IMG/VR virus record: IMGVR_UViG_3300045741_000327
DNA from: a virus
Length of the DNA: 26,757 nucleotides
Reading direction: 5' to 3' (one strand)
Shown here: positions 125-24,172 of the stretch, in pieces
How the letters are laid out: each line of letters starts with the position of its first letter
How positions within the stretch are numbered: position 1 is the stretch's first letter
Program-made: the position numbers and the translations under genes
The notes under the pieces: model-generated
Told to the model about the DNA's origin: nothing
Database searches by the model: none
The model's input: the letters and a program-made list of their open reading frames with translations, nothing else

Positions 125-207
125 GCCTCGGTGGTGGAACTGGTAGACACGGCGGACTCAAAATCCGCAGCCCATAAAGCGTGAGGGTTCGAGTCCCTCC
201 TGAGGCA
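125..207 (+). tRNA. tRNA-Leu(CAA), type II with long variable arm, CCA encoded (to 210)
   Basis: Acceptor GCCTCGG/CTGAGGC with one G-U. 3-bp D stem. Anticodon stem GCGGA/TCCGC with loop CTCAAAA. T arm GAGGG-TTCGAGT-CCCTC. Discriminator A then CCA. Confidence 0.85.
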
Positions 208-222
208 CCAACTGGAACGACT

Positions 223-432
223 ATGCTGAAGTTGCGATGGAAGTCGTACGTCGTGAAGAAGCGCGGTACTCTGTGGGAGGCTGCTTGTGCCTGCGGAGCA
301 GACCTAGGTGGTGCAGAGGAAAGTGAACGTGAGGCAGCTGAGTCCGAACACTTCAAGGAGAGGCAAGACATGATCGAATTTGGTTTCACTGTCTTGCCGT
401 GCGGTCCAACAGATCGTTCTCTGATGGAATGA
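223..432 (+). CDS. hypothetical small protein (internal Met of track ORF 181..432, which starts inside the tRNA)
   Basis: ORF track. Start moved past the tRNA to the next Met. Weak RBS. Confidence 0.3.
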   Translation: MLKLRWKSYVVKKRGTLWEAACACGADLGGAEESEREAAESEHFKERQDMIEFGFTVLPCGPTDRSLME

Positions 433-462
433 GCACATGTCTCTGTACAAACAGGTGGTCCC

Positions 463-660
463 GTGAGTAAGTACAAGGCTGAGTGGAAGCCCAACTCCAA
501 GAACGAAGCCTTCTGGGATGAGGTCATGGTCGGTCGGAAGATCACCAAGGTGGTCTGGACCGAAGACAGAATCACTGGACTCATCCTCGACAGCGGCGAA
601 GAGGTCTTCCTCCACCACCTGAACGAGCACAAGGACTGCGTCGTAATGATCAAGGACTGA
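463..660 (+). CDS. hypothetical protein (65 aa)
   Basis: ORF track. GTG start preceded by AGGTGG. Confidence 0.45.
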   Translation: MSKYKAEWKPNSKNEAFWDEVMVGRKITKVVWTEDRITGLILDSGEEVFLHHLNEHKDCVVMIKD

Positions 661-765
661 TCGTGAGAGTTCGATTCTCTCCTTGGGGTAGTTTCGCGTA
701 GAGAACATTCGTGCTATTCATGGTGGTGAGCACGATGACCGCATTACGCAAAGGATGATCGAGTA

Positions 766-1017
766 ATGAACCTGGAAGAACTGAAGACAGAAGCAAGGAA
801 GCTTGGCTACAGACTCATCCCGCTTGATTGGAAGCGGAAGGAGTTGAAGGGCCTAAAGCCGAACGGGGAGACCAAGGTGGAACCACCACCTCCATCTCAG
901 CCTCCCCGTAGGGAAGATCCACGCGAGCCGATTCTGGAACAGCTCAGAGTTGCCAGAGTAAGGAAAAACTGGAAGCTCTGTATCGAACTGGAGAAGCAGC
1001 TCGCAGAGATGCACTAA
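766..1017 (+). CDS. hypothetical protein (83 aa, Pro-rich linker)
   Basis: ORF track. AAGGATGA upstream. Stop immediately abuts tRNA-Ala. Confidence 0.5.
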   Translation: MNLEELKTEARKLGYRLIPLDWKRKELKGLKPNGETKVEPPPPSQPPRREDPREPILEQLRVARVRKNWKLCIELEKQLAEMH

Positions 1018-1090
1018 GGGCTCGTAGCTCAGTTGGGAGAGCGCCAGCTTTGCAAGCTGGATGTCACCGGTTCAATCCCGGTCGGGTCCA
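1018..1090 (+). tRNA. tRNA-Ala(TGC), CCA encoded (to 1093)
   Basis: Acceptor GGGCTCG/CGGGTCC (G3-U70 present). D arm GCTC-AGTTGGGA-GAGC. Anticodon loop TTTGCAA. T arm ACCGG-TTCAATC-CCGGT. Confidence 0.85.
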
Positions 1091-1093
1091 CCA

Positions 1094-1348
1094 ATCTTGG
1101 CGGTACGCTCCACTGGGTCTAGCCGTTGACCCCCATCGAGTGGAATCGCTTAGGGCAGTTGCCGGTGCTTGAGCGTGAATACAATGACGTGGGGCAGCAC
1201 GGAGTTCTCGGTGATGCGTGCTAACGACCACGAGGGCCAGGTGGTGCCAAGGTCTGGCCTGAACTGCCCCCGACTCGCTTGTGGCTCTTCTACACTAGAG
1301 GCGCTAAACTCTGGTGATGTCTCAGGCGGGTCGGGGTTTCCACAGTGT
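1094..1348 (+). ncRNA. ORF-free, structure-rich ~255-nt spacer inside the tRNA array (candidate structured ncRNA or degenerate tRNA remnant)
   Basis: No credible ORF. Long-range 8-bp pairing GGGCAGTT(~1155)/AACTGCCC(~1262) encloses nested hairpins (GGCCAG..CTGGCC, CACGGAG..CTCGGTG). Confidence 0.3.
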
Positions 1349-1421
1349 TGGGGCATAGCTCAGTTGGCAGAGCAGCGTCTTGATAAGGCGCAGGTCGTTG
1401 GTTCGATTCCAACTGCCCCTA
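1349..1421 (+). tRNA. tRNA-Ile(GAT), CCA encoded (to 1424)
   Basis: D arm GCTC-AGTTGGCA-GAGC. Anticodon stem GCGTC/GGCGC with loop TTGATAA. T arm GTTGG-TTCGATT-CCAAC. Acceptor TGGGGCA/TGCCCCT with an apparent U1-U72 mismatch. Confidence 0.75.
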
Positions 1422-1428
1422 CCAGTAC

Positions 1429-1502
1429 CGCAACGTAGCCAAGACGGTAAAGGCAGGAGACTGCAAATCTCCCATGCGCTGGTTCGATTCCAGCCGTTGC
1501 GT
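1429..1502 (+). tRNA. tRNA-Cys(GCA), CCA encoded (to 1505)
   Basis: Acceptor CGCAACG/CGTTGCG perfect. 3-bp D stem GCC..GGC. Anticodon stem GGAGA/TCTCC with loop CTGCAAA. T arm GCTGG-TTCGATT-CCAGC. Confidence 0.85.
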
Positions 1503-1518
1503 CCATTTAGAGGTCGCC

Positions 1519-1770
1519 ATGAAGGAAACAATCCGTAAGGTCTTGGCAAAATGCACGCACTTCGACAAGAGAACTTGGTACGGTGATCTTCTACCGACCG
1601 AGGTGCTAGCTCTTTATCGAGACGGGGCCAAGTTCAACGACCGGGACGTAGCTCGAGCTGCGAAGCTGATCTTGTCAGGAGAGATGGGCAAATGGAGCTC
1701 ATACTTCACTCCAACGGAAGATCAGTTGAAAGTTCTGCTCGAACGAAAAAAGGCTGCGGCGCGAGCCTAG
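1519..1770 (+). CDS. hypothetical protein (83 aa)
   Basis: Internal Met of ORF 1474..1770, downstream of the tRNA-Cys 3' end. AGAGG RBS. Confidence 0.5.
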   Translation: MKETIRKVLAKCTHFDKRTWYGDLLPTEVLALYRDGAKFNDRDVARAAKLILSGEMGKWSSYFTPTEDQLKVLLERKKAAARA

Positions 1771-1955
1771 TGGCTACCCTGTAGCGAACCTACAGGGTAA
1801 GCGGGGTGCCGATTCCCCGCCGCGCTCATCACCTGGGAGTGGCTGAGAATGCTGTTCCGGGAGACTTGTAGTCGACCAAGATTTCCTGGGCAGTGATGAC
1901 ACCAGCACCGGGTTCGTAACCCGGATAACGCAGGGGTAGTGTCCTGCCTCCCTTT
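1771..1955 (+). ncRNA. tRNA-like structured region (degenerate tRNA or tRNA-like ncRNA), not a canonical cloverleaf
   Basis: T-arm-like hairpins GCGGGG-TGCCGATTC-CCCGC and CCGGG-TTCGTAA-CCCGG. 8-bp hairpin CCCTGTAG/CTACAGGG. Possible closing helix GCTACCCTG(1775)/CAGGGGTAG(1931). No acceptor/CCA. No ORF. Confidence 0.35.
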
Positions 1956-2029
1956 ACTCCTGTAGCTCAGTCGGATAGAGCAACAGCCTTCTAAGCTGTG
2001 GGTCGGGGGTTCGATTCCCTCCAGGAGTG
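1956..2029 (+). tRNA. tRNA-Arg(TCT), CCA encoded (to 2032)
   Basis: Acceptor ACTCCTG/CAGGAGT perfect. D arm GCTC-AGTCGGATA-GAGC. Anticodon stem ACAGC/GCTGT with loop CTTCTAA. T arm GGGGG-TTCGATT-CCCTC. Confidence 0.85.
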
Positions 2030-2035
2030 CCAATT

Positions 2036-2108
2036 GGGCTGCTAGCTCAGTCGGTAGAGCAGCGGACTTTTAATCCGTTGGTCCTGGGTTCGAGCCCCAG
2101 GCGGCCCA
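2036..2108 (+). tRNA. tRNA-Lys(TTT), CCA encoded (to 2111)
   Basis: Acceptor GGGCTGC/GCGGCCC (one G-U). D arm GCTC-AGTCGGTA-GAGC. Anticodon loop CTTTTAA. T arm CTGGG-TTCGAGC-CCCAG. Confidence 0.85.
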
Positions 2109-2133
2109 CCAAGTGCAGTAGAACGAGGAGACA

Positions 2134-2463
2134 ATGGAAACACAACAGAGCAACGAGGCGCAACAAACTGAGGTGAACCTACGGCACTTCCCGAAGTACA
2201 AGCTGACCGCTGCTTTCACGATTCACGGAAAGCAGGCTCAGATTGCCTTCGCTGCCGCAAGCCCAGTGGACAACTGGTCGAGAAGGCTCGGAAGGACGAT
2301 CGCCCTCAACCGGCTGAAGAGCGACAAGCCAGACGTGAAGCACCGCATCGTCACGGACTTCGACATCCCTGCGCCGAAGTATGAGAAGGACACCCAGGAG
2401 GCCTGGGATGCCTATCTTCTCAACTTGGCTCGTCGAGACATCCTTCCACTTCCTGAAGTGTAG
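2134..2463 (+). CDS. hypothetical protein (109 aa)
   Basis: ORF track. GAGGAG RBS 6 nt upstream of the ATG. Confidence 0.6.
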   Translation: METQQSNEAQQTEVNLRHFPKYKLTAAFTIHGKQAQIAFAAASPVDNWSRRLGRTIALNRLKSDKPDVKHRIVTDFDIPAPKYEKDTQEAWDAYLLNLARRDILPLPEV

Positions 2464-2472
2464 AGGTCATTC

Positions 2473-2865
2473 ATGGCGGACTTGAACTACATCGTCGACC
2501 AGCTCTCCGAGCTCACACTTCCAGAAGCCGGCCAGTTGGCGGAGATGGTAGCCGAGAGGTGGGGAGTCAACATCTTCCTCACCCAGAAGTCGGCACCTCT
2601 GACTGTCAATCCAGTTGCGCTGGAAATCCCGGCCGTCCAAAAGACGGAGTTCGACCTCGTGTTGCTTGGGTGCGGCCCCAAGAAGATCGAGGTCATCAAG
2701 GAAGTTCGTAGTATCACTGGTCTTGGACTGAAGGAGGCCAAGGACTTCGTGGAGTCTGCTGGAGCAGGTTCTCCCCGCACCATCAAAGAATCTTTGAATG
2801 AGGGTGAGGCAAAGGCCTTCTTGAAGAGACTCCTGGACGCCGGCGCAACGGCAGAACTACAATAG
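2473..2865 (+). CDS. rplL: ribosomal protein bL12 (L7/L12) homolog
   Basis: C-terminal domain ...[41 protein letters not shown]... closely matches the bL12 CTD consensus (E. coli: [42 protein letters not shown]). N-terminal dimerisation helix plus flexible linker present. Confidence 0.85.
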   Translation: [130 protein letters not shown]

Positions 2866-2873
2866 AACGCAGG

Positions 2874-2946
2874 GCCCGAGTAGCTCAGACGGCAGAGCGC
2901 CTGCTTTGTAAGCAGGATGTCGCAGGTTCGATTCCTGTCTCGGGCT
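2874..2946 (+). tRNA. tRNA-Thr(TGT), CCA encoded (to 2949)
   Basis: Acceptor GCCCGAG/CTCGGGC perfect. D arm GCTC-AGACGGCA-GAGC. Anticodon stem CCTGC/GCAGG with loop TTTGTAA. T arm GCAGG-TTCGATT-CCTGT. Confidence 0.85.
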
Positions 2947-3068
2947 CCAAATGTGCTGACTGCGGCTTTGGTGAATCCTAGTTGCCCTTTTGGCGTGGCG
3001 GCAAAGAAGCAAACGTGCTGGGGCTAGAGTAGAGTTGTATGGACTACCAAGTTTGCGGTCAGTTTTGT

Positions 3069-3142
3069 GGGGTGTTAGTTCAGTCGGCTAGAACGCCAGC
3101 CTGTCACGCTGGAGGCCACGGGTTCGAGTCCCGTACACCCCG
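3069..3142 (+). tRNA. tRNA-Asp(GTC), CCA encoded (to 3145)
   Basis: Acceptor GGGGTGT/ACACCCC perfect. D arm GTTC-AGTCGGCTA-GAAC. Anticodon stem CCAGC/GCTGG with loop CTGTCAC. T arm ACGGG-TTCGAGT-CCCGT. Confidence 0.88.
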
Positions 3143-3161
3143 CCATTTTCTAAGGTGATAC

Positions 3162-3395
3162 ATGCCAAGACAAGTCATCAAGATCGATGAAATGGACGAG
3201 GACTCTCGTCACGATACGTTCATCACCTTGCGCATGACAATTCAAGAAGCTCTTCGCCGAGGGCTCTTGATTTGTAAATGTGGGCATCGTGATAACAACC
3301 ATTTCACGTTCGAGAAAGGACCTTGTGCTCACTGTGATGAGTGCAAGGAATTAACACTAGTTCCAGTCAATGCCATTTCTTTTGTGGGCGAGTAG
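3162..3395 (+). CDS. hypothetical Cys/His-rich small protein (77 aa). Stop codon lies inside the 5' end of tRNA-Val
   Basis: ORF track. C-x-C...H...C-x-H-C-x2-C pattern. Confidence 0.45.
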   Translation: MPRQVIKIDEMDEDSRHDTFITLRMTIQEALRRGLLICKCGHRDNNHFTFEKGPCAHCDECKELTLVPVNAISFVGE

Positions 3396-3457
3396 CTCAG
3401 CGGTAGAGCGCCTGCCTTACACGCAGGATGTCGCAGGTTCGAAACCTGTCTCGCCCA
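3386..3457 (+). tRNA. tRNA-Val(TAC), CCA encoded (to 3460). Clear paralog of tRNA-Thr(TGT) at 2874
   Basis: Acceptor GGGCGAG/CTCGCCC perfect. D arm GCTC-AGCGGTA-GAGC. Anticodon loop CTTACAC. T arm GCAGG-TTCGAAA-CCTGT. Backbone is near-identical to tRNA-Thr outside the anticodon and acceptor. Confidence 0.85.
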
Positions 3458-3493
3458 CCATCAACTCCGAAGTAATACCAAAGGGGAATTGCA

Positions 3494-5518
3494 ATGGACT
3501 TCCGTGTCTTCAAGACAGCGGTCGCAAAGCAGTTCGATCGGATGCAGAAGCACCAGCTCTTCAGGGTAGCTGTAGACAAGGATCTACTCTGGGAGACGTA
3601 CTTGAAGAGCTTCCCGGCAGGCACGAACCCAGTCTTCCGCAAGCGCACCGAGCACGACTGTGGCTGCTGCAAGCAGTTCATCCGTGCGATCGGCAACACC
3701 GTCGCGCTCATCAACGGAGAGGTGGAGAGCATCTGGGACGTACAGATCCCGGAGGAGCAGGCTTTCCAGACTGTTGCCAACGCTCTATCGGCGATGGTGA
3801 AGTCGAAGCCCATCTGCGACCAGTTCCTGCACTATGAGAACACGGCCGGAACAGACAAGAGCTGGGAGAAGATGGTCGAGCGGGTCCAGACCTGGAATCA
3901 CTTCTTCGTGAACATCCCCAAGGGATACGTCATGAAGAAGGCCGACATCCCAACGGCTCTGAGCGGTCCCCGTTCGACTCGTGATGTGCTGCTACGCAGC
4001 TTGACGGAGATCACGGACGACGCAGTCAACACGGTCCTCGAGCTGATCGCGCAGAACTCTCTGTACCGTGGAGAAGAGCACAAGTTCGCCGTCTCGGACT
4101 TCTACAAGCTGAAGCAGAAGTTCAACAAGTTCAAGACGGACAAGGACAGGGAGATCTTCACCTGGAGCAATCTGAAGGAGACGACCGGATCTGTAGCCAA
4201 GATCCGCAACACCTCCATCGGCACACTCTTGGTTGCCCTGTCTGAGGGCAAGGAGCTGGAGGATGCTGTGAAGTCGTTCGAGGCGATGGTGGCCCCGACG
4301 AACTACAAGCGTCCAACTGCTCTCATCACCAAGGCGATGATCGAGAACGCGAAGTCCAATCTACAGGAGCTTGGTCTGACGTCTGCCTTGGAGCGGAGGT
4401 TCGCAACCATCAATGACATCACGGTCAACAACATCCTGTTCGCCGATCGTTCGGCACGCAAGATCATGACTGGAGATGTCTTCGACGAGCTGGCAGGCTC
4501 GGTCAAGACGACGGTGAAGAACCTCGACAAGGTCGAAGAGGTGCCCATCGAGAAGTTCATCAACGATGTATTGCCGAAGATCGACTCCATGGAAGTGATG
4601 ATGGAGAACGATCACATTGGCAATCTCGTGAGCCTGATTGCTCCGGTAGATCCGTCGGCAGGTCGGCTGTTCAAGTGGGATAACGGCTTCAGCTGGTCCT
4701 ACAACGGCGGCATGGCGGATTCCATCAAGGAGAGGGTCAAGCGGGCCGGTGGAAACGTGACCGGGGAGTTCTGCTGTCGTCTGGCATGGTTCAACTTCGA
4801 CGACCTGGACTTCCACATGGTGGAGCCAGCCAACTACGAGATCATGTTCTCGAACAGGGCACACACGTCTCCGTGTGGTGGCCGTCTGGACGTGGACATG
4901 AACGCTGGAGGTGGTCAAACGAGGGAGCCAGTAGAGAACATCTTCTACTCCTCGATGAAGTCCATGAAGGAGGGTGTGTACACGCTGAACGTGCACAACT
5001 TCTGCAAGCGTGAATCGACGAATGTCGGCTTCGAGGTCGAGGTCGACATCAAGGGAGACGTGTACCACTTCGTTCACGAGAAGGCGGTTCCAGACAGGCA
5101 GACGATCACGGTCGCCAAGTTCAAGTATTCAAGGGCGGGCGGGGTCGAGATCTTGGAGTCTCTGCCAAACTCCAAGTCAGTACGCACGGTCTGGGGAGTC
5201 CCCACCAACACGTTCCAGAAGGTGAACGTGATGATGATGTCTCCGAACTTCTGGGACGCCAAGGCAGTCGGCAACAAGCACTACTTCTTCATGCTGGATG
5301 GCTGCATGAGTGACGCTCCAGCACGCGGGTTCTTGAACGAGTTCCTGAAGGAGGAGCTCAATGTTCACCGCAAGGTGTTCGAAGTAGTGGGATCGAAGAT
5401 GATGGTCGAGCCGTCGGACAAGCAGCTCAGCGGCCTCGGCTTCTCATCGACGCAGAGAAACTCCCTGGTCTGTCGAGTGAAGGGCAAGTTCACCCGTATC
5501 ATCAAGGTCATGTTCTGA
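3494..5518 (+). CDS. large protein of unknown function (674 aa) embedded in the tRNA array
   Basis: ORF track. AAGGGGAA RBS. High GC3 coding signature. HDCGCC Cys cluster near the N-terminus. No motif I can assign (no P-loop, no KxDG ligase motif, no MIDAS). Confidence 0.8.
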   Translation: MDFRVFKTAVAKQFDRMQKHQLFRVAVDKDLLWETYLKSFPAGTNPVFRKRTEHDCGCCKQFIRAIGNTVALINGEVESIWDVQIPEEQAFQTVANALSAMVKSKPICDQFLHYENTAGTDKSWEKMVERVQTWNHFFVNIPKGYVMKKADIPTALSGPRSTRDVLLRSLTEITDDAVNTVLELIAQNSLYRGEEHKFAVSDFYKLKQKFNKFKTDKDREIFTWSNLKETTGSVAKIRNTSIGTLLVALSEGKELEDAVKSFEAMVAPTNYKRPTALITKAMIENAKSNLQELGLTSALERRFATINDITVNNILFADRSARKIMTGDVFDELAGSVKTTVKNLDKVEEVPIEKFINDVLPKIDSMEVMMENDHIGNLVSLIAPVDPSAGRLFKWDNGFSWSYNGGMADSIKERVKRAGGNVTGEFCCRLAWFNFDDLDFHMVEPANYEIMFSNRAHTSPCGGRLDVDMNAGGGQTREPVENIFYSSMKSMKEGVYTLNVHNFCKRESTNVGFEVEVDIKGDVYHFVHEKAVPDRQTITVAKFKYSRAGGVEILESLPNSKSVRTVWGVPTNTFQKVNVMMMSPNFWDAKAVGNKHYFFMLDGCMSDAPARGFLNEFLKEELNVHRKVFEVVGSKMMVEPSDKQLSGLGFSSTQRNSLVCRVKGKFTRIIKVMF

Positions 5519-5528
5519 GAGGAGAACC

Positions 5529-5933
5529 ATGGACGCAAACGCACTGTTCGTAGAGGCAACTCGTCAGCACTTTCGCTTCAAGACTCCGGCAGGTGAGATC
5601 ACCGTCGAAGATCTGTGGGACCTCCCGCTGACTTCGACGGTGAATCGTCCGAACCTGGACGACCTCGCCAAGGCGCTGCACAAGCAGCTCAAGGAGGATG
5701 AGACCGTCTCCTTCGTCCGCCCGGTGGTCAAGAAGACGGCAGAGCTCCAGGCTCGCTTCGACGTGGTCAAGACCGTGATCGACTACAAGGTCGCCGAGCG
5801 TGACGCCAACCTGGCCGCCAAGGAGAAGGCGGAGAGGAAGCAGAAGCTGATGGAGATCATCAGCAAGAAGAAGGATTCCGAGCTCGAGGGCAAGAGCACC
5901 GCAGAGCTCGAGGCGATGCTGAACGCGCTGTAG
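5529..5933 (+). CDS. hypothetical protein (134 aa), Lys/Glu-rich coiled-coil C-terminus
   Basis: ORF track. GAGAGGAGAA RBS. Confidence 0.7.
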   Translation: MDANALFVEATRQHFRFKTPAGEITVEDLWDLPLTSTVNRPNLDDLAKALHKQLKEDETVSFVRPVVKKTAELQARFDVVKTVIDYKVAERDANLAAKEKAERKQKLMEIISKKKDSELEGKSTAELEAMLNAL

Positions 5934-5946
5934 AAATATGGACAGT

Positions 5947-5980
5947 GAGCCGGGGCATGTCACCAAGCCTGCCCCGGCTC
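5947..5980 (+). terminator. 11-bp GC-rich hairpin GAGCCGGGGCA/TGCCCCGGCTC without a U-tract (terminator-like or processing hairpin)
   Basis: Perfect inverted repeat between the CDS at 5529 and tRNA-Gln. Confidence 0.4.
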
Positions 5981-5991
5981 ACAACAAATGC

Positions 5992-6063
5992 TGGGGAGTA
6001 GCCAAGCGGTAAGGCACGGGACTTTGACTCCCGCATACGTGGGTTCAATCCCCACCTCCCCTG
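5992..6063 (+). tRNA. tRNA-Gln(TTG), CCA encoded (to 6066)
   Basis: D arm GCCAAGCGGTAAGGC identical to E. coli tRNA-Gln. Anticodon stem CGGGA/TCCCG with loop CTTTGAC. T arm GTGGG-TTCAATC-CCCAC. Acceptor TGGGGAG/CTCCCCT with U1 opposite U72. Confidence 0.8.
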
Positions 6064-6198
6064 CCACATCTGGAGAGTTACGTGGCCAACTACTTTCAAG
6101 TCAGCTTTCAATTTCCTGGGCCGTTTGTAAACTTCCCAGATGACGACCCATCCTCTCATGCCGCTTGTGCTAACTGTCTCAAAGCGGAAAAGGAGGCC

Positions 6199-6444
6199 AT
6201 GGCATTACTTGATGCAGCCAAGGTCAAACACAAGCACGCTTACTCCTGGCCAGATGGCTCCCTCTATCGGTTCGTCATGACAGAGAAGAGCAAGGCCGAA
6301 CTTGATGTCGCGCTCCTACAAGCCCACGGTGGCGACTACAACAAGCTCATCACCAGATGGGATATATCCGAAGAAACACCCGACAAAGATCCACACAAGG
6401 CGTATCATGATACCCTTGAGTCGTACATGAACGCCGTTGACTGA
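6199..6444 (+). CDS. hypothetical protein (81 aa). Internal Met of ORF 6082..6444 with AAGGAGG RBS
   Basis: Strong SD AAGGAGG 4 nt before the ATG at 6199. The 6082 start lies just after the tRNA-Gln CCA and has no RBS. Confidence 0.5.
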   Translation: MALLDAAKVKHKHAYSWPDGSLYRFVMTEKSKAELDVALLQAHGGDYNKLITRWDISEETPDKDPHKAYHDTLESYMNAVD

Positions 6445-6526
6445 GCGAGAGTGGCGGAGCTGGTAGACGCGCTGGACTTAGAATCCAGTGTCGAAAGACG
6501 TGAGGGTTCGACCCCCTCCTCTCGCA
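6445..6526 (+). tRNA. tRNA-Leu(TAG), type II, CCA encoded (to 6529)
   Basis: Acceptor GCGAGAG/CTCTCGC perfect. Anticodon stem CTGGA/TCCAG with loop CTTAGAA. Long variable arm. T arm GAGGG-TTCGACC-CCCTC. Confidence 0.85.
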
Positions 6527-6533
6527 CCAATTT

Positions 6534-6606
6534 GCTCCCGTCGTCTAGTGGCCTAGGACACCGGCCTTTCACGCCGTTAACACGGGTTCGATTCCCGTCG
6601 GGAGTA
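6534..6606 (+). tRNA. tRNA-Glu(TTC), CCA encoded (to 6609)
   Basis: Very close to E. coli tRNA-Glu architecture (GTCTAG.GGCC.AGGAC D arm). Anticodon loop CTTTCAC. T arm ACGGG-TTCGATT-CCCGT. Acceptor GCTCCCG/CGGGAGT with G1-U72. Confidence 0.85.
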
Positions 6607-6622
6607 CCAACCGGAGAATAAA

Positions 6623-6961
6623 ATGGCAGACTTCAAAGCACCTGATGGGTGGGTTTGGGTTTGTGGTGCGTGTGGAAAAACATCTCTAACCCACTACGGC
6701 ATCGGAAACAAAAACGGCTGGGACGAGTCCTGCATGATGAACGCATACTTGCTCGAGACGGGTGCGCTAGCAGATCCAAAGTGTACCAACCTAGACCTGA
6801 AGTGGCAGGCAGGGATCATCACCAAAACCACTCCTCCAGAGTTCCATGTTCAAGCACTAGCTCGAACGAAAGAAGCTGGAGAGCAGATCTTGGTCGCTTT
6901 GAAGGCCAGGGACAGCAATTATCAGTACGAATTGCGTGAGAAGAAAGCAGAGTCCTCATAG
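6623..6961 (+). CDS. hypothetical protein (112 aa). Stop overlaps the first bases of tRNA-Arg(CCT)
   Basis: ORF track. GGAGAATAAA upstream of the ATG. Confidence 0.6.
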   Translation: MADFKAPDGWVWVCGACGKTSLTHYGIGNKNGWDESCMMNAYLLETGALADPKCTNLDLKWQAGIITKTTPPEFHVQALARTKEAGEQILVALKARDSNYQYELREKKAESS

Positions 6962-7025
6962 CTCAGGTGGATAGAGCGCAGGTTTCCTAAACCTGAGGCC
7001 GCAGGTTCGAGTCCTGCTGGGGACG
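6952..7025 (+). tRNA. tRNA-Arg(CCT), CCA encoded (to 7028)
   Basis: Acceptor GTCCTCA/TGGGGAC (one G-U). D arm GCTC-AGGTGGATA-GAGC. Anticodon stem CAGGT/ACCTG with loop TTCCTAA. T arm GCAGG-TTCGAGT-CCTGC. Confidence 0.85.
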
Positions 7026-7032
7026 CCATTTT

Positions 7033-8576: not shown

Positions 8577-8835
8577 TTTCGAAGAATGCACAGTTTGTAG
8601 AGTCAAGCCCGGCTCTCCCGTACTGTGCGAACCATGCCTCCACAATCGAGCCGTCATCAATGAGCTCGACTCTCGCCTGAGCAGAGTGCCAAAAATGATG
8701 ATTCCAAACTACTCGAAGTGGGAGTTGTTTTGGGTCTTCTTGATACTGGCCGCCTTAGCAATCGGCTGTTGGGAAGGTCTTAGGTGGATTCTAGTTTGGT
8801 TATTCCACCACGTTTCGATTGAGTGGAAGCCCTAA
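8512..8835 (+). CDS. hypothetical protein with C-terminal transmembrane helix (107 aa). Start uncertain
   Basis: ORF track. CxxC pairs then WELFWVFLILAALAIGCWEGLRWILVWLF. Confidence 0.35.
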   Translation: MTAIIASSCTKLMPSQTELKLDFEECTVCRVKPGSPVLCEPCLHNRAVINELDSRLSRVPKMMIPNYSKWELFWVFLILAALAIGCWEGLRWILVWLFHHVSIEWKP

Positions 8836-9359
8836 TGCCGCTCACTAGATGCCCACACTATCTCGTCATTGAAGAAGGCGAGTGCATTGAGTGTTACAAA
8901 GACCAGATAGCTAAGTTGAAGCTTGATCTTGGCCGCATGACAGACAATCATGACAAATGCGGCAGAGCTCTCATGGAAACCAGGGCGGAGGCTGAGAGAG
9001 CCTATAAGCTCTTTCCACCCCTTCTAAAGGGCGTCTGTGAAGCTCTGAAGGGTACTCCTCCACCAGAATCGTTGGTCATGTACGACTGGTCAGATCTCCC
9101 AGTCGTAGCAAAGCAGCTGGTGGAGAAGTTCGACAAGGCTTTTAGCCTGCTCTTGAAAATCCAGTGGGTTGAGAGCGAGTACAAAGGTCGGGAATATGAG
9201 TTCTGCCCAGTCTGTGGAAACATAAACGCCCACACCCATGGGTGCGAACTCGGTGACTTCATCTATGCCAACTGCAAGCATGAGATGAAGCGTGGTGAGG
9301 TATCGAGCATGTGCACCAAGTGCCGCTTCACCAAATGGGATGGCGATGAGACGTCCTAG
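8835..9359 (+). CDS. hypothetical Cys-rich protein (174 aa; multiple CxxC zinc-ribbon-like pairs)
   Basis: Internal ATG of ORF 8823 with TAATG overlap on the previous stop. Confidence 0.6.
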   Translation: MPLTRCPHYLVIEEGECIECYKDQIAKLKLDLGRMTDNHDKCGRALMETRAEAERAYKLFPPLLKGVCEALKGTPPPESLVMYDWSDLPVVAKQLVEKFDKAFSLLLKIQWVESEYKGREYEFCPVCGNINAHTHGCELGDFIYANCKHEMKRGEVSSMCTKCRFTKWDGDETS

Positions 9360-9557
9360 GTTTCTTCCAAGATCTGTGTGGTGGTCTCTTTCACAGACTG
9401 AAAGAAACGCTACAGAAGTGAGGAAGACACCATCTGGGAGATATCACGTCACCATTTTCTACTGGTACTGTGAGCCGTCCGACACTTGGGTGATGCGAGA
9501 TGCACACAAGGGCGTTCTCGTACCATTCGGATACATTCTACCGGATTAGGAGAAACA

Positions 9558-9758
9558 ATGAACCCGGCACTAATCTTCATCGGCTGCATCATAGTGCTGG
9601 TGCTTGCTGGTGGCCTGGGTGTCAAAACCTGGCGTAAATGGGATGAGCAGAAATCCAGGAAGCTAGTCTCCAACCTCAAAGCCATGAGTGCACGCCGGCG
9701 TGCGCAAGAACCAACAGACGTATGGGAAGCCTGGAACTCAGAGAAGAGCGATGGGTAG
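9558..9758 (+). CDS. small membrane protein (66 aa)
   Basis: Internal Met of ORF 9486. AGGAGAAACA RBS. N-terminal TM helix ALIFIGCIIVLVLAGGLGV. Confidence 0.5.
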   Translation: MNPALIFIGCIIVLVLAGGLGVKTWRKWDEQKSRKLVSNLKAMSARRRAQEPTDVWEAWNSEKSDG

Positions 9759-10149
9759 TTTCGCCTACGGAACTCCACGGAACCGACAATGGAGAAAGGG
9801 TGTCTGGCTCCGATGCTGTGGGCACAACCCGGCCCTAGAGAAACAGATCCTCAAGAAGGCTCGCTGGGGCGAGTACATCAGCTACATCAAGATCGTAGAG
9901 GTCAAGCCGGACGGCTTTGTCATCGTAGAAGCCTGGTGCAAGAGGCCGGTGATAGACTCTGGCAAGAACTTCACGTGGAACAGACACACCGTCATCCACC
10001 TGTACATCAAGGAAGATCCCAACTGGGTATGCGACCTGAATCTAGGTCGCGGTATGCCGAAGGCTGAGTGGAAGCTCTACGAAGAGGAGGAAGCTCGTGA
10101 GCAGCGAAGTCAAAGTCGTAGCAACAAAGACGCACCGAGCAAAAGATAA
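9751..10149 (+). CDS. hypothetical protein (132 aa)
   Basis: Internal Met of ORF 9688. Overlaps the previous stop. Confidence 0.45.
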   Translation: MGSFAYGTPRNRQWRKGVWLRCCGHNPALEKQILKKARWGEYISYIKIVEVKPDGFVIVEAWCKRPVIDSGKNFTWNRHTVIHLYIKEDPNWVCDLNLGRGMPKAEWKLYEEEEAREQRSQSRSNKDAPSKR

Positions 10150-10360
10150 GCAAGGGAGACAACTCGGCCACATTGGCGAAGTTGAGCGAAGAGTCATCAA
10201 GAATGTTGCAACCTTCGGCGGGAAGCGTTTTGCTGCCTGGCGTAGATTGACTGCCAATGGCGTTCCTATTGGCAGGCCAGAACGTTTTGATACCTTCTCA
10301 ACCGAAGAGAAAGCCATCGAGCACGCTGAGCGCATCTGCAAGAGCTCACAGGTAGAGTGA
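10097..10360 (+). CDS. hypothetical protein (87 aa)
   Basis: GTG start 7 nt after AGGAGG. Confidence 0.45.
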   Translation: MSSEVKVVATKTHRAKDKQGRQLGHIGEVERRVIKNVATFGGKRFAAWRRLTANGVPIGRPERFDTFSTEEKAIEHAERICKSSQVE

Positions 10361-10532
10361 TGACGGACGAAGAGTTCAAGGCACTCAACATCAGGCCGCC
10401 ACAGCCGTTAGACAAGCAGTGCGTACAGATGCACAAGCTGGGCTATTGTGTCTGTACGATGGTGGACTGTATGTGGTGTGATGGTCGTCATCCTCCAAGC
10501 AAAAACTGCCGAAAAATAGAAGGAGGTGCGAA

Positions 10533-11000
10533 GTGAGCATGGTAGAGATGGAAAAGCAGATTGCGGACATCAAGCGCCGATTCGCAGACGAGTGCGCAGC
10601 GATCCGGCAGGCGCAGAACGCGCAGAGTATCCGCCTCTCCGCCCTGGAGGCGCAGGATCCCGCGCCCAAGCCCGCCGCGTGCGGTCCCAGCTGCGTGGGG
10701 ACGTGCCTGGCGTCCGGTCCGCATCTGCGCGATCTGGCGGCGACGCACTTCCCCTGCTTCGGCTGGCGCTGCGACGGCACCGGCCCCGCGCACAACGCCA
10801 CCCCGCCCGCCGCCGCTGACGCGGTGACGCGCGAGGAATTGGCCGAGGCGCTGCGGTTGCTGCATGGGTGGTTCAAGACGGTCGCCGAGATCATCGAAGC
10901 AGATCACGGTGCGGACGAGGAGGACATTGCTGGCGCGCAGGGCGTGCTGGCCGACACCGACACCCTCCTCGCCCGCCTCGACGCGGAGGCCAAGCCGTGA
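10533..11000 (+). CDS. hypothetical Ala/Pro/Cys-rich protein encoded by a sharply GC-rich (~70+%) island
   Basis: ORF track. GAAGGAGG upstream. Codon usage is dominated by GCG/CGC/GCC, unlike the ~50% GC neighbours. Confidence 0.6.
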   Translation: MSMVEMEKQIADIKRRFADECAAIRQAQNAQSIRLSALEAQDPAPKPAACGPSCVGTCLASGPHLRDLAATHFPCFGWRCDGTGPAHNATPPAAADAVTREELAEALRLLHGWFKTVAEIIEADHGADEEDIAGAQGVLADTDTLLARLDAEAKP

Positions 11001-11410
11001 CAGAGGCAAGCAACTGCGAGATTTGTGGTAGACCACTACGCCAAACAGACACAGAAACAGGGTGTCTTGCTGCCTCATACAGAAAACTTGGGTATAGCCT
11101 AGAGAATGCAGTCGGTATTGATTTTGACTGTTATCGTCTAGGCTACGAGCGACTCAAGGCTGAAATCAAACAAAAGAATATCGTAGCAAGCGATCCTCAG
11201 ATGAGGTGCACGGGTACGTTAGTTCACAGTGAGTTTGAGAACTGTCCAGTACATCCCGTTCACACAATGCAACCAATAGGCTCTCCGTGTGGGTACTCTG
11301 ATGGTTGCATCTGCGGTCAGAACTGTGACGATGCAGCTGCTGAAGTCGAAGTAACTGCCGACGCAGAAGAACCAATCGATCCCCACGAGCCTAAGTTCCC
11401 AATCCCGTGA
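10997..11410 (+). CDS. hypothetical Cys-rich (zinc-ribbon-like) protein (137 aa)
   Basis: GTG start overlapping the previous TGA (GTGA). The upstream part of track ORF 10868 is the alternative frame of the GC-rich gene. Confidence 0.45.
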   Translation: MTEASNCEICGRPLRQTDTETGCLAASYRKLGYSLENAVGIDFDCYRLGYERLKAEIKQKNIVASDPQMRCTGTLVHSEFENCPVHPVHTMQPIGSPCGYSDGCICGQNCDDAAAEVEVTADAEEPIDPHEPKFPIP

Positions 11411-11604
11411 GCTCAACCATCTACAAATACAAAGTAGATTGGAAGTGCCCTCTGTGTGGGCGTGTTTTCCCCGCTGCGAAAGTTCAGACGGAAGTCAGCT
11501 ACAAGGACGTGCGAGAATCTGCTAGGGTTTACCGTGAATCCCTCTACAAACTATTGGAGGAACGGGAGACCCACCTCAGGGCACACTCTCAGTCCAAAAA
11601 ATGA
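11407..11604 (+). CDS. hypothetical small protein with CPLCG motif (65 aa)
   Basis: ORF track. GTGA overlap with the previous gene. Confidence 0.5.
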   Translation: MSSTIYKYKVDWKCPLCGRVFPAAKVQTEVSYKDVRESARVYRESLYKLLEERETHLRAHSQSKK

Positions 11605-11813
11605 CTCGAACGGCAATGGCACACGAGACCAAGACCGCAAAAGCATCCAAGCTGTTCCAGCACCAAACAAACGAACAACTAAGGCGAGCCTTTCAGGATG
11701 CCATGCGAGACATGGCTGATAGGCGGCCAAGGACTCTTGCTGCAATGCACGAGGAGGTTACTTGGTATCACAAGCTGAGGGACGAGATGCAGAGGAGAGG
11801 CATTCGTCCGTAG
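11601..11813 (+). CDS. hypothetical basic protein (70 aa)
   Basis: ORF track. ATGA overlap. Confidence 0.5.
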   Translation: MTRTAMAHETKTAKASKLFQHQTNEQLRRAFQDAMRDMADRRPRTLAAMHEEVTWYHKLRDEMQRRGIRP

Positions 11814-11977
11814 CTCCGTGCGCCCACGAACATTACGAGCACTTGGCGGATAGGTCTTCCACTACCGCAGGGTGCATCTATTGGTGCCAGGACTGCGGAG
11901 CTATCTCCATCACCACAGACCGTCGAACCCGTAGTTGGCGACTGCCAACAACTAGGAGAGAGCACCAAGATGCCTGA
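11762..11977 (+). CDS. hypothetical Cys/His-rich protein. Start uncertain (TTG)
   Basis: ORF track. CxHEH...CxxWCxDC pattern. Confidence 0.3.
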   Translation: MVSQAEGRDAEERHSSVAPCAHEHYEHLADRSSTTAGCIYWCQDCGAISITTDRRTRSWRLPTTRREHQDA

Positions 11978-12323
11978 GACCAAGAAGAAGTGGCTCTGTG
12001 TTTGTGAGGGAGGGACCAATCGATCTGTAGCGTTGGCCCTCCAGCTCAAACAGGCAGGTCAAGACGCTCTTGCTGGATCGTGGCGTTACAACTCTCCAGA
12101 GACGTTCCAGATGTTGGTCCTCTGGGCCGATTACGTCGTCGTCATGCAGGCTGAGTTTGCGCCGATTCTGCATGAACAACTTGGCCTGTCTCATTTGATT
12201 GGAGACAAGATGCGCTGTGTAGACGTCGGTCCAGATGTCTACGGTAGCGGAACTCACTTGGGCCTAAACCAATTTCTCCAAGGCGTAGTGGCCGAATGGA
12301 GACAAAAGAGCTGGGAGCTCTGA
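11970..12323 (+). CDS. low-molecular-weight protein-tyrosine phosphatase / ArsC-family phosphatase-like protein
   Basis: N-terminal P-loop LCVCEGGTNRS gives the C-x5-R-S signature. A downstream D-V-Y-G matches the D-P-Y-Y-G acid loop of LMW-PTPs. GGAGAGAG RBS. Confidence 0.65.
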   Translation: MPETKKKWLCVCEGGTNRSVALALQLKQAGQDALAGSWRYNSPETFQMLVLWADYVVVMQAEFAPILHEQLGLSHLIGDKMRCVDVGPDVYGSGTHLGLNQFLQGVVAEWRQKSWEL

Positions 12324-12595
12324 TGGAAAAGATGATCGAGGCATTTGTTCGACAAGTGAAGGCAGTGGACCCTGAACCAGTGGTCCACAAGGACAAGCCA
12401 GCGATTTACCCAACACGCGAGGAAGTAGTCAAGAACAGGAAGTTCCAGATCACCCTCGAGCTGCACCACGACGACATGATCAAGAAGTGGAACATGCCAG
12501 GAGTGCCGACATCCAACCTGTACCTCATCTTCACTGAAGTCCCGGCATGGGCAAAGGTTGGAACGGTCGTGAAGTGGAAGATGATCGAAGAGTAG
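12296..12595 (+). CDS. hypothetical protein (99 aa; alternative start 12323 with TGATG overlap)
   Basis: ORF track. Confidence 0.5.
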   Translation: METKELGALMEKMIEAFVRQVKAVDPEPVVHKDKPAIYPTREEVVKNRKFQITLELHHDDMIKKWNMPGVPTSNLYLIFTEVPAWAKVGTVVKWKMIEE

Positions 12596-12628
12596 TCCCG
12601 CAGTAATCCCCCAACAGGAGAAGAACCA

Positions 12629-13018
12629 ATGGCAGAGGCAGTCGCCTTTACCGCACCCGAGGTGTGCCCAGCGTGCAGGCGGGCATTCTTCGAGGGCTGG
12701 CAGAAGCTGGTCGAACTCCCCACCAACAAGCCCAGGTGCCAGGACGTGAAGGAAGGAGAGAAGACGATCCCTGGCTGCGGCAGGCCGTACACCGGCAAGA
12801 TCGGCAAGATCGACAACACCGGTGACACCAAGATCATGTGGGACAAGGACAACCCCGACGAGGTGGATGCCGCCAGGCTCCAGTTCGAGCACCTGACCAA
12901 GAAGGGGTACCTGGCGTACAAGGCCGAGGGGAACAAGGGCGAGAAGGGGGAGAAGGTCACCAAGTTCGACCCCACCGCCGAGCGGCTGATCCTCACTCCT
13001 CCACTTCGCGGAGGGTAG
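12629..13018 (+). CDS. hypothetical protein (129 aa), CPAC...C...C motif, Lys/Gly-rich C-terminus
   Basis: ORF track. ACAGGAGAAGAA RBS. Confidence 0.65.
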   Translation: MAEAVAFTAPEVCPACRRAFFEGWQKLVELPTNKPRCQDVKEGEKTIPGCGRPYTGKIGKIDNTGDTKIMWDKDNPDEVDAARLQFEHLTKKGYLAYKAEGNKGEKGEKVTKFDPTAERLILTPPLRGG

Positions 13019-22923: not shown

Positions 22924-23256
22924 ATGACCGCTCTCGAGATGTACCGGGAGCACCGGGCCTCGTGCCTGAACTGCTCTTTCTACGACTGCAACACGGCCCG
23001 TCGGCTGCTGAGCATCGCTGAGGCGGAGGCCTCGCAGCCGAAGTCGGCGATGGACCTGTTCTTCCCCCGCCCCACCCGCACGGTGGTGGTCGAGGTGGAG
23101 CGCCCCCGCCCGGTGGTGGTCATCCGGCCGTCCAGGCCGATGACGGACACCGAGGTCGGCGTCGCCGCCGGGCTGTTGGGTGGAGCGTTGGTCGGAGGAA
23201 TCCTGGGGGCGATCCTCAGCGACTCCCCCTCCAAGAAGAGCAAGAAGGGCAAGTAG
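22924..23256 (+). CDS. hypothetical protein with C-terminal glycine-zipper TM segment (110 aa)
   Basis: ORF track. GVAAGLLGGALVGGILGAIL. Confidence 0.6.
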   Translation: MTALEMYREHRASCLNCSFYDCNTARRLLSIAEAEASQPKSAMDLFFPRPTRTVVVEVERPRPVVVIRPSRPMTDTEVGVAAGLLGGALVGGILGAILSDSPSKKSKKGK

Positions 23257-23689: not shown

Positions 23690-24172
23690 ATGTCCCTCGA
23701 GATCAGCGAGATCACGATCGGCCACCAGCCGAACATTCACATCGCCCCCGCCAAGTACCTGTTGGCGTTGTGGGAGGTGATCACCTCCACCATCATCCTG
23801 CCCAGTCTGGGCAGCACCGGCTACATCGACTACTTGACCCCCGAGGACATGGAGAAGGCCTCTGGCAACAAGCGGGCGGCCAAGGGCCAGGACAGCGCCG
23901 GGCGCAAGTGCATCGCCTTCCTGTTGGACGTGTGGCCGGAGGGTCAGGAGAACAAGCGGCGGTGCGTCGTCACCGCGTTCCAGCGGTATGCTGACAACGA
24001 GCTCTTCTGGGTCACCGCCGGTGACAAGTCGTTCATGATCGAGTGCGAGGACGAGCACCGGACCTCGCACGAGAAGATCTCCTCCCTGATGATGGGAGAG
24101 CAGGTCTCCTATGTCATGAACAAGCACGCTCCCGAACTGGCCAGGAAGTACCTGGCCGAGATCCCGCTCTAA
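23690..24172 (+). CDS. hypothetical protein (160 aa)
   Basis: ORF track. AAGGAGAAG RBS. Confidence 0.7.
   Translation: MSLEISEITIGHQPNIHIAPAKYLLALWEVITSTIILPSLGSTGYIDYLTPEDMEKASGNKRAAKGQDSAGRKCIAFLLDVWPEGQENKRRCVVTAFQRYADNELFWVTAGDKSFMIECEDEHRTSHEKISSLMMGEQVSYVMNKHAPELARKYLAEIPL

Follow-up and report, generated by a model that had tools for sequence, protein, structure and literature searches.

A GC-rich gene in a 56% GC phage contig, probably acquired from phages of higher GC

The viral contig IMGVR_UViG_3300045741_000327 from IMG/VR, analysed here over its whole length of 26,757 base pairs (bp; the window), carries at positions 10533-11000 a short gene that is far richer in guanine plus cytosine (GC) than the genes on either side of it. 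The compositional island that it forms, its choice of synonymous codons and the genomes in which its relatives are found point to a foreign, phage-borne origin at high GC, a reading to which we give a probability of about 0.65. The features discussed are collected in Table 1.

An earlier note, made from the letters of the sequence, had described a compositional island at this position, and a sliding-window profile bears it out. In 200-bp windows the GC content is 0.63-0.75 at 10500-11000 and 0.46-0.55 on both sides. The highest 400-bp value of the entire window (0.7275) falls at 10591, compared with a mean of 0.558 (standard deviation 0.042, maximum 0.6875) for the remainder. Two-state maximum-likelihood segmentation of positions 9800-11800 separated an island with a GC content of 0.726 from surroundings of 0.516, with a log-likelihood ratio of 31 nats, and placed the 5′ edge within 10556-10606 and the 3′ edge within 10984-11021. 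The note had put these edges at the ribosome-binding site and the stop codon of the gene. The 3′ edge does coincide with the stop codon; the 5′ edge falls 20-70 nucleotides inside the gene, leaving about 13 AT-richer codons, which could stem from a resident 5′ end that was kept or simply reflect the AT-rich composition common at translation starts. The gene as a whole has a GC content of 0.701 (0.72, 0.53 and 0.86 at first, second and third codon positions; GC1, GC2 and GC3). Among the 51 open reading frames (ORFs) on the plus strand it ranks first in GC (z 3.6), second in GC1+2 and sixth in GC3, and its base composition departs significantly from that of the rest of the window, as is required of a gene taken to be horizontally acquired.

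A GC3 as high as 0.86 is no sign of foreign origin in itself, because about ten resident genes reach 0.80-0.93. Resident values span 0.43-0.93, most of them lying at 0.43-0.70, and the neighbours of the island gene in the same coupled operon have 0.43-0.60. GC3 alone is therefore misleading in a phage with a GC3-rich class of its own, and it is the choice among GC-ending codons that separates foreign from resident. The resident high-GC3 class favours the C-ending codons GCC, GGC, CCC, GTC and ACC, and uses AGG for 27% of its arginines. The island gene, by comparison, encodes 16 of its 31 alanines with GCG (P = 1.8e-4 against the resident high class) and contains neither AGG nor AGA.

Two codon models were compared, one for the resident high-GC3 class and one for the genes of four high-GC phage contigs that carry relatives of the island gene, the relatives themselves being excluded. 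The log-likelihood difference (high-GC phage minus resident-high) was +14.4 nats over the 152 codons of the island gene. None of 5000 recodings of its protein with resident usage reached this value (mean -17.5, standard deviation 5.9), which is typical of recodings with high-GC phage usage (mean 16.8, standard deviation 5.5). With a revised resident class the difference was +13.0 nats, again reached by no simulation (0/3000). Per codon, the island gene scored +0.085 and the ten resident GC3-rich genes, all on the other side, scored between -0.117 and +0.023; its per-codon fit to the low resident class was worse still. The synonymous usage of the island gene is unlike that of either resident class and resembles that of the family-carrying phage contigs of 65-72% GC. 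The second GC-richest ORF in the window, at 22924-23256 (+; 110 amino acids, GC 0.679, GC3 0.93), has a codon usage near neutral between the two models.

The protein encoded by the island gene had no match to a Pfam or PHROG family and no sequence match in the PDB. A single-protein search of 5.8 billion proteins returned the protein itself, present on one contig only, and P0002, which is its closest relative, aligns with it at 47% identity across 65% of the length and lies on a phage contig of 65% GC (L001). Running HMMER in full across 1.84 billion representatives, together with a profile search, brought the family to 14 members beyond that of the window, namely P0002, P0003, P0005-P0015 and, for the coiled-coil part only, P0004. 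Apart from the window protein, the 5.8 billion proteins contained just 12 relatives, and the 1.84 billion representatives another five, one of these matching in the coiled-coil part alone. No confirmed member was found among the 185,579 genomes of GTDB, taken at one genome per species, and a protein-pattern scan of metagenome contigs confirmed no further one. The family is very rare, unnamed and undescribed. The 73 DNA matches to the CDGTGPAH pattern described below, obtained from a metagenome collection that evidently lacked the contig of the window, were all chance matches out of context.

Members of the family share a layout of an N-terminal helical, coiled-coil-like segment (R-x-A-A-L-E), a Pro/Ala-rich linker, a conserved core and a variable C-terminal part. 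The core, C-x3-C-V-G-x-C ... P-H ... C-x(2-4)-W-x-C-D-G-T-G-P-A-H, is the sole part conserved across the whole family. An AF2 model folds it into a small beta-hairpin plus a helix, a beta-beta-alpha arrangement for which no fold match was found. It resembles the zinc knuckles of the DnaJ type (CxxCxGxG) and HNH or His-Me finger motifs: like them, it has two C-x3/4-C-x-G-x-[C/G] half-sites and conserved His residues within a stretch of about 45 residues, for which a beta-hairpin and a helix are predicted. The core is presumed to bind a metal, probably zinc. As modelled, the island product would be a three-part early protein with a coiled-coil helix at its N terminus, then the Cys/His core that has CDGTGPAH at its end, and last a helical hairpin; it may serve as an accessory protein by binding a partner from the host or the phage. 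The earlier note had called the product rich in Ala, Pro and Cys, which holds for Ala, at 31 of the 153 residues; with 10 and 6 residues, Pro and Cys are no more than moderate.

Ten contigs carrying relatives were read. All are strings of short co-oriented genes, and the genes that can be named are phage genes: a primase-helicase, a ligase, a DNA polymerase A and a PD-(D/E)XK nuclease on L001; an ERF recombinase, an exonuclease and a Lar-like protein on L003; a Lar-like protein and an integrase on L004; a DUF3799 exonuclease on L005; and an M15 peptidase on L010. In five of the ten (L002, L003, L004, L005 and L012) the GC content is 0.70-0.72 throughout and the family gene blends in. The backgrounds of L001 and L010 are at 0.65 and 0.63, with a somewhat richer family gene (0.71 and 0.74, respectively). 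The closest homologues are thus held, in a patchy distribution, by genomes that resemble the supposed donor, as expected under horizontal acquisition, although the best identity is only 47%.

Two contigs of lower GC, independent assemblies from other samples, contain islands of their own. In L006 three consecutive genes at 767-2344 have a GC content of about 0.68 and a GC3 of 0.74-0.83, and are flanked by DNA of about 0.45 with a GC3 of 0.41-0.49. In L011, a contig of 45% GC, only codons ~42-138 of the gene at 711-1163 are GC-rich (0.65-0.72, with 8-10 GC-ending codons per 10); its first 40 codons, its last 10 codons and all neighbouring genes are at 0.42-0.47. From the blending in high-GC contigs together with these islands, the family appears to be native to high-GC phages and to reach AT-richer phages repeatedly. 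The L006 segment starts with the family member P0013 and its third gene (1625-2344) encodes an Ala/Tyr/Thr-rich repeat protein. The L011 family protein stops right after CDGTGPAH and has no C-terminal domain.

A comparison of the family genes at the nucleotide level revealed short patches that are conserved far better than the proteins. The 24 nucleotides encoding CDGTGPAH (TGCGACGGCACCGGCCCCGCGCAC) are the same in six of the nine members of high-GC style, that of the window among them, and differ at one position in each of the other three; overall protein identity among these members is 26-47%. The CDGTGPAH motif of the protein is itself under selection, because the AT-shifted members on L009 and L011 encode it by other synonymous codons. 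The codons of CVGTC are nearly always TGC GTG GGG ACG TGC in the family genes of L001-L012. The window gene shares further short patches, 90-100% identical in nucleotides, with diverged members on L006 (25 nucleotides, RLSALEA), L003 (27 nucleotides) and L001 (33 nucleotides at 91%). In P0006 and P0008-P0011 the C-terminal half, which starts immediately behind CDGTGPAH, is almost identical, and the N-terminal halves differ. The CDGTGPAH block may therefore be a mosaic junction. The family is matched elsewhere in the window too: the C-terminal ~70 codons of the gene at 19759-20334 (+; about 20190-20330, CEDCKADHADPITAAAERIAIGAKPKGLCCEWSRR) show 46% protein and 72% nucleotide identity to the C-terminal domain of P0013. 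This domain is a second module common to these phage groups, because the two C-terminal domains match.

Synteny bears on how the gene arrived. In L011 the family gene lies directly upstream of, and overlaps by 4 nucleotides, a homologue of the gene downstream of the island (38% identity over 52 amino acids, motifs C-x-I-C and CY[KR]LGYERL, GC 0.41). In L002 a protein with the same motifs is encoded directly upstream of the family gene. Moreover, in L006 and L011 as in the window, the island begins after an AT-type 5′ end, and that of L011 also stops before the stop codon. Because of the L011 synteny, the AT-type 5′ ends and the mosaic structure of the family, the data suggest allele replacement at a shared locus rather than a fresh insertion. 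A phage of high GC (65-72%) would have recombined with this phage of ~56% GC, the entering gene body would have replaced a family member resident at the locus except for its first ~13 codons, with no new transcription unit inserted, and the entered gene would have yet to drift toward resident composition. Of the single-gene acquisition proposed in the earlier note, the high-GC source is kept and a fresh insertion looks less likely, given that a contig of 45% GC carries a family member with a GC-rich interior at the same locus. Conservation in syntenic position, which the note held would speak against a recent acquisition, is seen in part, in the distant contig L011 only. Composition, codon usage, family distribution and synteny are observed, and the direction, the recency and the recombination route of the transfer are inferred; the sole ground for recency is that the gene has not ameliorated, and the searches turned up no donor of near-identical sequence.

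Several observations weigh against this origin. The amino-acid composition of the protein, written in resident high-GC3 codons, predicts a GC content of 0.687 where 0.701 is observed (0.606 with low-class usage), so that the GC content by itself needs no foreign origin. The codon test comprises 152 codons and four high-GC contigs picked for carrying the family, and the family genes in the islands of L006 and L011 show no preference for the native high-GC model over the resident-high model of the window. The synteny with L011 depends on a pair of short matches, obtained from small databases with E values of about 1e-5 to 1e-6. Even the best relative reaches no more than 47% identity, across 65% of the length. 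Finally, megablast of 9000-13000 against INPHARED, single-protein scans of IMG/VR, a protein search with the downstream gene and an alignment of the downstream family against IMG/VR yielded no close relative of the phage.

One alternative is that the gene is resident and that no transfer took place, its composition resulting from an Ala/Pro/Gly/Arg-rich protein combined with the phage's own GC3-rich, host-adapted codon usage. We consider this unlikely, yet worth keeping in view. About half of the GC excess of the island gene is accounted for by its amino-acid composition, and the remainder could, in principle, reflect the resident GC3-rich style, in which other genes go beyond the GC3 of the island gene. 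Tight coupling to both neighbours by GTGA overlaps and the family member at the same position in L011 are also what a long-standing resident would show. The choice of GC-ending codons, however, lies outside the resident class in every simulation, and the neighbours in the coupled operon have the low GC3 given above, so expression is unlikely to differ much between them and the island gene. Moreover, family islands occur in contigs of 45% GC whose neighbouring genes have no high-GC3 class. As an aside on the resident genes, those rich in GC3 may be host-adapted and highly expressed, and the others may depend on phage transfer RNAs (tRNAs).

Returning to acquisition from a high-GC source, the nature of the donor can be narrowed. 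The earlier note had deduced a high-GC donor from composition and had thought of an actinobacterium. The high-GC source is supported by the fit of the codon usage to phage contigs of 65-72% GC and by the presence of P0002 in a contig of 65% GC; the donor is more likely to have been a phage than a bacterium. An origin from an actinobacterium or an actinophage in particular seems improbable. A GC content above 70% with usage rich in GCG, CGC, GCC and CCG is typical of Actinobacteria, and the downstream gene has a weak match to DUF6011, a domain presumably common in actinophages, although this match is below threshold. Against this, the DNA polymerase of L001 is nearest to those of Xanthomonadaceae phages, at 44% identity for Stenotrophomonas phage AXL3 and Pseudoxanthomonas phage PW916, compared with ~25% for a Gordonia phage. 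The L005 exonuclease has mixed phage matches (Paracoccus, Burkholderia and Arthrobacter), and the DNA and exonuclease of L003 gave no taxonomic match. A tblastn search with the window protein and P0009 found no match in 50,697 phage records, thousands of actinophages among them, and the GTDB species genomes hold no confirmed family member.

The window's own affinities are with Caulobacter phages. Two of its genes, 3494-5518 and 5529-5933 (+), encode homologues of gp273 (59% identity, 674 amino acids) and gp274 (44%, 130 amino acids) of Caulobacter phage phiCbK. Both proteins of this two-gene block (3494-5933) belong to families of unknown function, phrog_1735 and phrog_2018, and the larger has relatives in 550 phage records. 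Thirteen tRNA genes were found at 125-7028, all on the plus strand (Leu-CAA, Ala-TGC, Ile-GAT, Cys-GCA, Arg-TCT, Lys-TTT, Thr-TGT, Asp-GTC, Val-TAC, Gln-TTG, Leu-TAG, Glu-TTC and Arg-CCT). Of these, ten have anticodons for codons that end in A or are otherwise of AT type (UUG, GCA, AGA, AAA, ACA, GUA, CAA, CUA, GAA and AGG), which are used by the low-GC3 resident genes and avoided by the high-GC3 genes. A tRNA array for such codons is what one would expect where a phage is AT-richer than the host, and large phages AT-richer than their high-GC hosts, such as the phiCbK-like phages of Caulobacter, carry such arrays. The window resembles these phages in its tRNAs and in the gp273 and gp274 homologues. 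Unlike them, it has a GC content of 56%, well below the about 66% of phiCbK, and no other shared genes were detected in the 42-kilobase stretch of phiCbK that was compared. Because of the 13 tRNAs, mostly for A-ending codons, and the two phiCbK homologues, a high-GC (proteobacterial) host is plausible; such a host would let this phage meet high-GC temperate or lytic phages.

A third possibility is that a moron or mobile element, for example a self-spreading, free-standing gene of the homing-endonuclease kind, was inserted between two formerly adjacent genes. Phage morons are reportedly a concept of Juhala and Hendrix. By definition, a moron combines deviant GC with its own promoter and terminator (PMC3594210). 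The island gene shares with morons the state of a single, accessory, patchily distributed gene that deviates in GC within a phage gene string and implies horizontal transfer. The family also recurs as islands in unrelated contigs, and a beta-beta-alpha core is modelled. However, a consensus scan limited to sigma-70-type promoters and to terminators found no promoter-like or terminator-like site beside 10533-11000, and no direct or inverted repeats flank the island. The gene is instead coupled by GTGA overlaps on both sides, the 5′ edge of its island lies inside the gene, and in L011 both edges do. As for an endonuclease, none of the 14 members matched an HNH or other nuclease family in Pfam at E ≤1, the modelled core matched no fold, and the helix after the conserved His varies in sequence and length across the family. 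Insertion of a moron or mobile element is accordingly quite improbable. A metagenome assembly chimera, in which DNA of a high-GC organism was mis-joined into the phage contig, is hardly credible: the window does come from a metagenome and no other contig is known to carry the exact protein, but the 424-nucleotide segment continues the reading frame of a resident-type 5′ end, stops precisely where a stop codon overlaps the next start, encodes a protein whose homologues are all phage-borne, and has its like in two independent assemblies.

The preferred origin, replacement by a family member from a high-GC phage, lies within known phage mosaicism and calls for no biological system of a new type. 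Recombination at the boundaries of genes or domains is reportedly the subject of the modular theory of Botstein and of work by Hendrix and colleagues. Module-sized exchange between phages of different composition, half-shared members and conserved nucleotide patches at the junctions are all in keeping with it. What differs is that the exchange spans a gap of 15-25 percentage points in GC and that the same rare family is involved in at least three lower-GC contigs. The locus thereby offers a controlled example of gene flow between phages of differing composition. The recurrence of an unnamed family with a sharp Cys/His motif as a GC-rich patch hints at selection for the gene or at a recombination-prone sequence. 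More speculatively, and with low confidence, the family might be a specialised, repeatedly transferred cassette that passes from high-GC to AT-richer phages of the same hosts and recombines at short nucleotide patches (the 24-nucleotide CDGTGPAH block, RLSALEA and LARLDAEA) conserved beyond the need of the protein. Its Cys/His core could then be a new small metal-binding domain that either has an early function on which selection can act, for instance in anti-defence or in taking over the host, or promotes its own exchange.

Table 1. Features of the island gene, its surroundings and the GC3-rich resident genes (positions in the window).
Feature	Position	Strand	Basis
Island gene; 155 amino acids from GTG 10533, or 153 from ATG 10539 (JGI call P0001); stop TGA 11000	10533..11000	+	ORF; GC1/2/3 coding pattern; homologues P0002-P0015
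GC-rich segment (island proper)	10574..10997	.	Change-point likelihood; sliding windows
Gene start, ~13 codons of AT-richer, resident-like composition	10533..10573	+	30-bp GC of 0.47 at 10540-10569; 5′ boundary interval without the start codon
Ribosome-binding site AAGGAGGT (10520-10527), then GTGA overlap (10533-10536)	10520..10536	+	Read from sequence
Cys/His core, C-x3-C-V-G-T-C ... P-H ... C-x4-C-D-G-T-G-P-A-H	10680..10793	+	Alignments; invariant C, G, H, C, D, G, P, A, H
CDGTGPAH codons, TGC GAC GGC ACC GGC CCC GCG CAC	10770..10793	+	Nucleotide comparison of family genes
3′ patch encoding LLARLDAEA	10958..10990	+	blastn; 33 nucleotides at 91% to 3′ end of L001 family gene
Upstream gene; 59-amino-acid Cys-rich protein, GC 0.51, GTGA overlaps at both ends	10357..10536	+	ORF; sequence
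Downstream gene; 137 amino acids, GC 0.49, motifs CEICGRPL...CYRLGYERL, GTGA overlap	10997..11410	+	ORF; sequence; homologue in L011
Resident GC3-rich genes, including those listed	3494-5518, 5529-5933, 12629-13018, 16105-18822, 19759-20334, 21613-22053, 22924-23256, 23690-24172

At the locus itself, the GTGA at 10533-10536 combines the stop of the upstream gene with the GTG start of the island gene, and the GTGA overlap of the island gene with the next gene at 10997-11000, already pointed out in the earlier note, was read from the sequence. The neighbours differ from those given there: the gene at 10097-10360 does not immediately precede the island gene, as the 59-amino-acid gene sits between the two, and 10997-11604 is not one gene but two (10997-11410 and 11407-11604). 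Five consecutive junctions are 4-nucleotide start/stop overlaps (GTGA at 10357, 10533, 10997 and 11407, and ATGA at 11601), forming a chain of translationally coupled small genes. Several of these small genes are Cys-rich and have CxxC motifs (8823-9359, 10357-10536, 10997-11410 and 11407-11604). The window contains no further copy of any island stretch exceeding 12 nucleotides, in contrast to what is required of the target of a diversity-generating retroelement, and Rfam covariance models returned no family, the only two matches being to microRNAs at chance level (E 0.65-0.79). Opposite-strand ORFs at 10391-10894 and 10488-11078 were rejected; they owe their length to the scarcity of stop codons in high-GC DNA, and the weaker similarity that they show to L001 merely mirrors the match in the plus-strand frame.

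Two other genes of the window can be assigned. The gene at 14403-14882 (+) encodes a protein like nucleoside 2-deoxyribosyltransferases (PF15891, 7e-20). The gene at 16105-18822 (+; GC3 0.93) encodes a 905-amino-acid protein with a Major Vault Protein shoulder domain (PF11978, 2e-23) and a Vault_3 repeat (1e-10). In 40-kilobase stretches of two huge-phage loci, L007 (LR756501, 32% GC) and L008 (LR756500), nothing except this vault-like protein was held in common with the window. Its only relatives in the phage database are in three huge uncultured phages of 462-735 kilobases (LR756500, LR756501 and LR756503), at 38-41% identity over more than 80% of the length.

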